Positions 41,180-41,931 of a stretch of DNA of 53,136 bases are shown in pieces. Made by a program: the position numbers and the translations under genes. The notes beneath the pieces are model-generated. The model worked only from the letters and a program-made list of their open reading frames with translations. It was not told the origin of the DNA and did no database searches. The stretch is taken from NCBI GenBank assembly GCA_031393945.1, contig JANMWH010000080.1, forward strand, positions 1-53,136, written 5' to 3'. Positions within the stretch are counted from its first letter, which is position 1, and each line of letters opens with the position of its first letter. Source of the stretch: Polaromonas sp. Lineage in GTDB: Bacteria > Pseudomonadota > Gammaproteobacteria > Burkholderiales > Burkholderiaceae_C.

Positions 41180-41931
41180 ACCGAGCTGAGTTATTGGCAG
41201 CTTTTGATACGCTGCTGCAACCCGAGCGCTTCAAAGACTACGGCCCGAACGGCTTGCAGGTTGAGGGCAAGGCCGACGTACGCAAAATCGTCTCGGGCGT
41301 TACGGCCAGCCTGGCGCTGATTGAAGCGGCGGTGGCCGCCAATGCCGACGCGATTTTTGTGCACCACGGCCTGTTCTGGCGCGGCCAGTCGGGCACAGTC
41401 ACAGGCTGGATGAAGCAGCGCCTGGCGCTTCTGCTCAAGCACGACATTAACCTGTACGCTTACCACCTGCCGCTAGACGCCCACCCCGAGCTGGGCAACA
41501 ACGCGCAGCTGGGTTTGCAGCTGGGTTTAACGGCTACGTCGCGCTTTGGTGAGCAGAACTTGGGTTTTATGGGCGGCAAAATGGATGGCAGTAGCTTCGA
41601 AAGTGCTTTTGAGCTATCAGAACACGTCAAATCGGTACTAAATAGGCCTGTAGCCCATATTTTACAGGCGCGATCAGCTATAAAAAATATAGCGTGGTGC
41701 ACCGGTGGTGCGCAGGGCTATTTTGAAGCCGCCATTGCCGCTGGCGCTGATGCGTTCATTACCGGCGAAATCTCAGAACCCCAAGCCCATTACGCGCGGG
41801 AAATGAATGTGACCTTCATCGCTTGCGGCCACCATGCGTCCGAGCGCTACGGCGCGCCGGCCGTGGCCGCGCATGTGGCCGGCCAATTTGGCTTGGCGCA
41901 TGAATTTATTGATATTGACAACCCGGCATGA
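41176..41931 (+). CDS. Nif3-like dinuclear metal-centre protein (YbgI/DUF34)
   Basis: [39 protein letters not shown] start overlaps the cysK stop. Confidence 0.94.
41645..41694 (+). repeat. Dispersed 50-bp motif, copy 7, in frame inside the nif3 CDS
   Basis: ggcctgtagccc-atattttac-aggc-gcgatca-gctat-aaaaaat-atagc-g, encoding [17 protein letters not shown]. Confidence 0.88.

Follow-up and report, generated by a model that had tools for sequence, protein, structure and literature searches.

Several kinds of dispersed sequence in bacterial genomes bear comparison with the motif family described here. The neisserial DUS and the Pasteurellaceae USS are DNA uptake signals of 9–12 bp. In the available text of two papers, they are genome-wide, lie on both strands, are dual-coding with a frame bias, form dialects and originate by recombination (PMC2817400; PMC2397512). 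The present motif is alike in these respects; it too has hundreds of copies, evenly spread over both strands, with a frame-biased coding share. As far as these sources go, DUS and USS behave most like the motif but are short. The motif, unlike them, spans ~70 bp, carries 63 bits and two dyads, and can bring insertions of up to 36 codons; their short core with abundant near-misses has no counterpart in it.

REP/REPIN–RAYT systems also consist of hundreds of short palindromic copies, with lineage dialects and enrichment between convergent genes. Their GT(A/G)G foot is not conserved here, matrix position 44, where it would begin, being 45% conserved; there is no hairpin kept by compensatory change, and Y1 transposase genes lack flanking copies (none in six loci). 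The motif further differs in being mostly present as singlets, without identical masters, and in its 30% coding share. RPEs, as described in the accessible part of PMC10969869, are dispersed repeats read in frame inside housekeeping genes, and in this they are similar. They are, however, ~150-bp insertions in 44 copies, whereas the motif has 185 coding copies, uses all six frames and shows no hairpin covariation; among 58 coding copies tested, 26 are mosaics of unchanged length. In-frame lengthening of the MITE/RPE type is found in 20 of 58 coding copies and in gatA, but not in nif3; near-identical copies from recent spread are absent, and the unit, examined for terminal inverted repeats, is asymmetric. 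BREs, which occur in Polaromonas and relatives and sometimes in genes, were considered as the identity of the motif and rejected, being an unrelated GC-rich sequence of ~90 bp in the text available (PMC3110155).

Two fragments of the family have very likely been reported before, to judge from sequence comparison with the part of Tong et al. 2017 that was available (PMC5217627). Its Table 7 contains GCTTAT-N5-AAGCG from Acidovorax ebreus TPSY, which matches the second dyad of one dialect (the G060 type, see below), and ATAGCT-N22-CAAAAG from Polaromonas naphthalenivorans CJ2, which begins with the inner arm of the dyad. These spaced motifs have 114–125 copies, some in genes and many between convergent genes. 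That text lists them as separate unexplained pentamer pairs; it neither gives the full element nor connects the two, and it contains no coding or evolutionary analysis. Additional file 2 may list more fragments. No description of the whole element was found in the literature searched, whose coverage excluded subscription journals and bioRxiv supplements; beyond fragments, the family is undescribed there.

The window, i.e. the whole stretch of DNA analysed (53,136 nucleotides of a Polaromonas contig), contains coding and intergenic copies of the motif (Table 1). The copy that drew attention lies in a Nif3/YbgI gene, which matches TIGR00486 over its full length (201 bits; cut-off 130.55) and E. 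coli YbgI with E = 8e-62, the latter protein being one residue longer. In the predicted fold (helix 144–155, strands 160–162 and 172–174), the site extends from the end of a helix through a strand and a loop into the strand preceding WCTGG. A preliminary description had reported a perfect dyad, and GCTAT-AAAAAAT-ATAGC is indeed found; codons 157–173 of the 251-residue protein directly precede WCTGG, as had also been stated. The copy was further described as gap-free over 50 bp. It is gap-free, also against the full 71-column matrix, but its extent had been underestimated, as it runs on to position 41628. The label 'full consensus' is not warranted: 11 of the 50 positions are mismatches, which is the family median, and the copy ranks 377th of 618 overall and 80th of 185 among coding copies. 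Of the codons said to be atypical for the gene, AGG (0/8) and ATA (0/10) do not occur elsewhere in nif3, but TTA does, encoding 2 of 24 leucines there. Replacement of sequence without lengthening was correctly recognised: the L-x-R-x-P...AWC spacing equals that in six of six orthologues from other families.

Table 1. Motif copies, their parts and the nif3 host gene in the window.
Feature	Position	Strand	Basis
nif3/ybgI (DUF34), 251 aa, hosts embedded copy	41176..41931	+	homology, profile match
Embedded motif copy, 62.6 bits, nif3 codons ~151-174	41628..41698	-	matrix scan
Family-wide dyad GCTAT-N7-ATAGC, codons A168-A173	41677..41693	.	sequence
Second, lineage-specific unit, GCGC-N11-GSGC type, matrix positions 23-41	41653..41671	-	matrix, dialect comparison
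Phased A/T tracts, matrix positions 51-54, 62-66	41628..41643	-	matrix
Second coding copy, in pdxA (VLQKCELLAPVSIGL), about length-neutral	42171..42241	+	matrix scan
Intergenic copy, between convergent pdxA and mscL	43020..43090	-	matrix scan
Intergenic copy, downstream of degS/htrA-like gene	38855..38925	+	matrix scan
Intergenic copy	35884..35954	+	matrix scan
Intergenic copy	23840..23910	-	matrix scan
Intergenic copy, 87 bits	16051..16121	-	matrix scan
Copy over start of gene at 10206	10198..10268	+	matrix scan
Copy at 3' end of gene 707-1861	1855..1925	-	matrix scan

The peptide at the site was pre-adapted. Nif3 family members show A/P-I/V-x-x-I/V-A-W-C at this position, S. aureus Nif3 has IKRIA, and outgroups have AIRTIAWC. 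By the criterion of the preliminary description, identical residues and codons in orthologues of taxa without the repeat would count against it; the outcome is divided, as two loci, one from a low-copy Variovorax (L081) and one from a genome with no matches (L103), keep AIKNIA but in ordinary codons. The peptide was thus already compatible with the family, and the signal is carried by the codons. Across 89 loci (of 110, after exclusion of 13 motif-free loci, of duplicates and of one partial gene), codon frequencies at the site depart strongly from those elsewhere in the gene: GCT 92% against 8%, AAA 99% against 35%, ATA 96% against 5%, CCT 70% against 9%, and GTA 57% against 4%. These rare synonymous codons, together with the decay seen in genomes whose motif count does not exceed background, give good support to the proposed maintenance at the DNA level.

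Judged from its distribution over Polaromonas, Rhodoferax and Variovorax, the nif3 copy appears to be ancient; in Variovorax, the dyad is kept in four of five loci. In the AT-rich clade to which this genome belongs, the position of a glycine retained in all six other-family orthologues is taken by Leu, Ile, Asn or another residue, a replacement that coincides with the AT-rich local dialect. The nif3 copy is closer to the flanking copies of its own genome than to those of others in 44 of 48 loci, a comparison confounded by GC content and kinship. Several lineages (loci L036, L038, L050, L051, L092) have either 2–6 extra residues at the site or a dyad shifted by 9 bp. In two motif-bearing genomes (G015, G018; loci L014, L015) the nif3 dyad has been lost, so the single site is dispensable. 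Nor does nif3 stand out: it holds one of 185 coding copies, with another in the adjacent pdxA, and is old but typical within a large dual-coding family, not the special case for which it had been taken. 'Functional' in the sense of a benefit to the host would be too strong a word; selfish drive is expected to yield the same pattern.

The family was defined by a 71-column matrix of 63 bits, with a score of at least 20 bits required of a copy, and was searched in a 2.67-Mb, 82%-complete Polaromonas metagenome-assembled genome (MAG; G000). The window is one contig of this MAG, whose closest named relatives by nif3 belong to Polaromonas. The search yielded 618 copies, or one per 4.3 kb; the same scan of the reversed genome gave no match of at least 8 bits. 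Partial sites are scarce, with 15 at 8–20 bits. Taken from the dyad outwards, the ~70-bp motif comprises the dyad GCTAY-N7-RTAGC (in the fuller matrix reading GCTAY-W-rich N7-RKAGC), then TGCTY, a second unit of the form GCGC-N11-GSGC, and A/T tracts that recur at ~10.5-bp steps, i.e. in helical phase, up to about position 85. The spacer of the dyad is strict: GCTAT-N7-ATAGC occurs 116 times in the genome, and any other spacer of 0–20 at most five times. The edge is sharp at the dyad end and tapers gradually at the opposite end. At seven matrix positions, 91–98% of copies have A or T, the two being freely interchangeable.

There is neither a cloud of identical dispersed copies nor any subfamily among those in the genome, and nearest-neighbour identity (0.833) compares with 0.812–0.823 in column shuffles. 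Near-identical pairs (98–100%) have common flanks, and apart from 10 close pairs most copies are singlets. Covariation among columns is limited to near neighbours. An apparent hairpin covariation, seen by eye, failed the shuffle test and was rejected; no excess of hairpin pairing was found in G000 (594 copies), in two genomes of other genera (G232, 30 copies; G060, 28) or in a phage set (50). Near-perfect hairpins do occur at copies in one genus (G118). A comparison of six loci from each of five genera, together with the 30 and 28 copies from two genera, revealed a constant dyad and a middle part that forms genus dialects. Both arms of the second unit switch jointly between genera (TT/AA in G060, AG/CT in G232) and do not covary among the copies within one genome. 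This anatomy, with co-change between genera and no pairing covariation within genomes, suggests symmetric proteins on bent double-stranded DNA rather than a hairpin.

By place, the 618 copies divide into 392 intergenic, 41 over a gene end and 185 inside genes, 151 of the last being at least 30 codons from both gene ends. A simple in-house caller predicted 2781 genes, of which 178 hold coding copies; nif3, pdxA, ligA, dxr, coaBC, gatA and comEC are among them. Convergent spacers are enriched (117 of 349, versus 182 of 1333), as is equally expected of neutral insertion. Genes flanked by two copies are of mixed kinds. No orientation bias was seen in co-directional spacers (98 versus 105) or relative to host genes. 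KOPS, Chi, matS, parS and SlmA sites show replichore strand bias or clustering at ori or ter. Such polarity or clustering is absent from a complete Polaromonas chromosome, with 74 forward and 79 reverse matches and an even spread over 3.0 Mb, as judged from the 100 of 153 matches listed.

Use of reading frames is highly uneven (80, 67, 16, 10, 9 and 3 of the 185 coding copies), although all six are occupied. The favoured frame is open in only 21% of non-coding copies, and the frames with 10 and 3 copies are open in 50% and 40%; stop codons therefore do not explain frame use. The motif encodes recurrent peptides, such as AIKNIA, RARAA and ELLAP, and one signature peptide pattern was found 34 times versus once.

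Among 200 Comamonadaceae genomes, 71 have the pattern, 43 have at least 10 matches, and the maximum is 507; 244 genomes outside the family never have more than one match each. The motif is confined to the Comamonadaceae. Variovorax holds 31–47 bare dyads with decayed tails. Phages carry the motif as well, in 58 viral-contig loci at unrelated places that include terminase, primase, Cro-like and lysis genes, as named from their translations rather than by database calls. A BLAST search of plasmid and phage collections with one copy gave no match, which carries little weight given how degenerate the motif is. Recurrent positions in phages are the C-terminus of the terminase large subunit (L318, L332, L353) and the region just upstream of cI-like repressor genes (L308, L312, L316, L327, L329).

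Once present, motif sites are stable. Empty sites were found in 0 of 82 comparisons at flank identities of at least 95%, in 2 of 87 at 90–95%, and in 10 of 137 at 85–90%. One clean insertion was observed, of 81 bp between genes (L105 versus L095), and in this single case the target duplication is at most two ambiguous bases. For coding copies, 58 of the 185 could be anchored against 1.57 Mb of a motif-free relative (G001): 26 are length-neutral, 20 are longer by 4–36 residues, 3 are longer by 2, and 9 are shorter. GatA is nine residues longer at the motif than its Pseudomonas and Aquifex counterparts. The comEC gene itself contains an 81-bit copy, with a net insertion of 28 residues versus G001 (G000:C343:968).

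The length-neutral copies appear to be mosaics that keep ancestral residues. Where they depart from the consensus at codon positions 1 and 2, the base is that of G001 in 82 of 138 cases (permuted 26%, maximum 35%), and third positions agree with the consensus in 254 of 311. This picture is qualified by the probable secondary loss in G001, owing to which some 'ancestral' residues may post-date the site; distant structures were therefore compared as well. CoaBC, Dxr and LigA retain enterobacterial length and residues through the site; for the CCA-adding enzyme, no relative of known structure passed 1e-20. Differences between 12 pairs of orthologous intergenic copies amount to 2% at high-information positions versus 12% in the flank. 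Over 357 non-independent pairs, conserved motif positions diverge by 0.06–0.13 and four-fold sites by 0.12–0.50. Low-information positions even outpace four-fold sites (0.31 versus 0.12; 0.43 versus 0.24), a pattern as compatible with repeated rewriting as with selection.

Five Polaromonas genomes (G001, G002, G010, G013, G020) have 2–10 dyads, below their controls, and lack both the nif3 and the pdxA site. In a quick tree (55 of 102 rows, motif columns removed) they form one clade (SH-aLRT 97) nested inside Polaromonas (99), which makes a single secondary loss likely. The nif3 motif thus likely decayed in a nested clade in which the whole family is at background level. The pdxA coding copy is conserved in most Polaromonas and Rhodoferax loci, and motif-free relatives keep a relic peptide, C-x-L-x. 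G001 has a sole copy of 46 bits (L265:2929-2999, C36) in 1.57 Mb otherwise free of the motif, either a relic or a recent import. It has another repeat family instead, a CGTC-headed palindrome with ~27 copies of its top 16-mer (L196–L295).

The nested clade without the family can serve as a natural knock-out in the search for a putative reader protein. No reader was found among the candidates compared. ComEC does not track the motif, being present in 76 of 80 genomes and kept in motif-free ones. The same is true of a subclass-2.1 Y1 protein (76 of 80, intact in motif-free genomes), and tyrosine recombinases (Phage_integrase) and HU/IHF (5 of 5) do not track it either. An RT (RVT_1) was rejected as the reader; it is present in only two of three bearing genomes and absent from a bearing genome that is 99% complete. 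Gene subtraction against G001 (1.57 of ~2.8 Mb) left 1491 unmatched proteins and 106 syntenic-gap genes, with no convincing candidate by eye. The HUH-Y1 gene is single-copy, lies upstream of gltB (L111:1462-2172) in 76 of 80 family genomes, and has no motif copy beside it.

The explanation that we consider probable, by a modest degree, is that the motif is a double-stranded DNA site for a putative protein complex; new copies would arise through templated recombination, and selection or drive would then preserve them base by base. One dimer would read the constant dyad, and a second, faster-evolving dimer the variable one, on DNA bent along the phased A/T tracts. Insertions together with in-register mosaics argue for templated writing plus base-by-base maintenance, and the few weak sites, the L105 insertion, the net coding insertions and the unrelated phage places for birth in one step. 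Such birth might proceed by insertion with variable deletion or, alternatively, by short-patch overwriting at a look-alike target, e.g. Ala-Ile-x-x-Ile-Ala codons. Selection at the protein level would retain only the frames and residues that the fold tolerates, and loss of the reader would leave all sites to decay. The benefit behind maintenance may be a gain for the host or drive, as both fit. In a bolder version, which is tentative and on balance doubtful, the Comamonadaceae would possess an undescribed self-marking system: a complex reading the 70-bp bipartite signal would also have it written into host and phage DNA through short-patch overwriting. Hundreds of sites would thereby be re-tuned to the lineage dialect, and residues would be rewritten in ~6% of proteins, including essential enzymes. 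A 63-bit signal in 178 of 2781 genes is a much heavier dual-coding load than that of short uptake sequences, and DNA-driven recurrent peptides could mislead protein annotation and phylogeny. If writing is active, it would be a new way in which proteins change, and perhaps a targeted recombination activity of a new kind.

Other explanations account for part of these data. A non-autonomous mobile repeat of REP/REPIN, RPE or MITE-like type is unlikely. A transposase, e.g. the orphan subclass-2.1 HUH-Y1 protein, would have spread it; coding copies would be frame-filtered insertions with compensating deletions, and conservation would reflect the needs of the transposase. This would suit the genuine insertions (L105, coding genes with net gain, gatA), the sharp dyad-side edge and tapering far side, the patchy occurrence (0–500 copies per genome), the dialects and the phage copies, and nearly all genomes have a single-copy Y1 protein whose motifs match a subclass with no known REP in the accessible text of PMC6006769. 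It sits poorly with the absence of subfamilies, of an identical-copy cloud and of hairpin covariation, with an asymmetric unit around which no terminal inverted repeat is apparent and whose one clean insertion lacks a clear target duplication, and with the 0 of 82 empty sites at flank identities of at least 95%. Six Y1 loci have no motif copy within 1.5 kb, the protein is intact in motif-free genomes, and the in-register mosaics also count against transposition. A DNA uptake or packaging signal like DUS or USS, enriched by biased uptake and recombination, would be a specific form of the protein-site explanation, and we regard it as improbable. Occurrence on both strands, even spacing, a core with phased A/T tracts, the dialects, the frame bias and signature peptides of coding copies, and the presence of comEC would all be accounted for; DUS, too, originate in recombination events whose counterpart is unrelated sequence or a gap (PMC2397512) and reshape proteomes (PMC2817400), according to the available text of these papers. 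However, 63 bits over 70 bp far exceed the length of DUS or USS, near-miss sites are few, the density is one per 4.3 kb, comEC is retained in motif-free genomes, and no paper was found that combines 'Comamonadaceae' with 'DNA uptake sequence'.

An element acting at the RNA level, as a terminator or a stability or processing hairpin, is very unlikely. Enrichment between convergent genes, also reported in the accessible text of PMC5217627, and the hairpins of G118 would agree with it; the lack of orientation bias in co-directional spacers and genes, the lack of covariation and the 151 copies deep inside genes do not, and the Rfam matches in the window at gathering score consist of one tRNA only. 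That the resemblance is due to chance, through the codons used in a tolerant loop, or that the site is an artefact of assembly has a negligible probability, even though the Nif3 family already shows a compatible peptide. The nif3 copy scores 62.6 bits where the reversed genome gives no 8-bit match, its rare codons are fixed in 89 loci, and contigs from four runs of three studies independently bridge the site with 0–8 differences over their length, so both versions are already refuted.

Some further observations concern the neighbourhood of nif3 and other repeats. About 9–10 kb downstream of nif3, a PLP aminotransferase-like gene has a weak (26–29 bit), length-neutral site in six loci (L062, L068, L076, L078, L101, L046) that is absent in L043 and L102; we read it as caught in gain or decay. 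In L057, L076, L083 and L099, a GC-rich repeat of ~90 bp fills, ~5–6 kb downstream of nif3, the intergenic slot that the motif occupies in sister genomes. Two contigs of the MAG (G000:C34 and C37), both without the motif, have near-identical cytochrome cbb3-like gene sets, due to duplication or bin contamination. LigA has an insertion of ~48 residues versus E. coli (PHPSPLP...LSPRERAGVR; L365:490-650, G000:C173), which appears to derive from a second, purine/pyrimidine-rich palindromic repeat family that is also among the top dyads.
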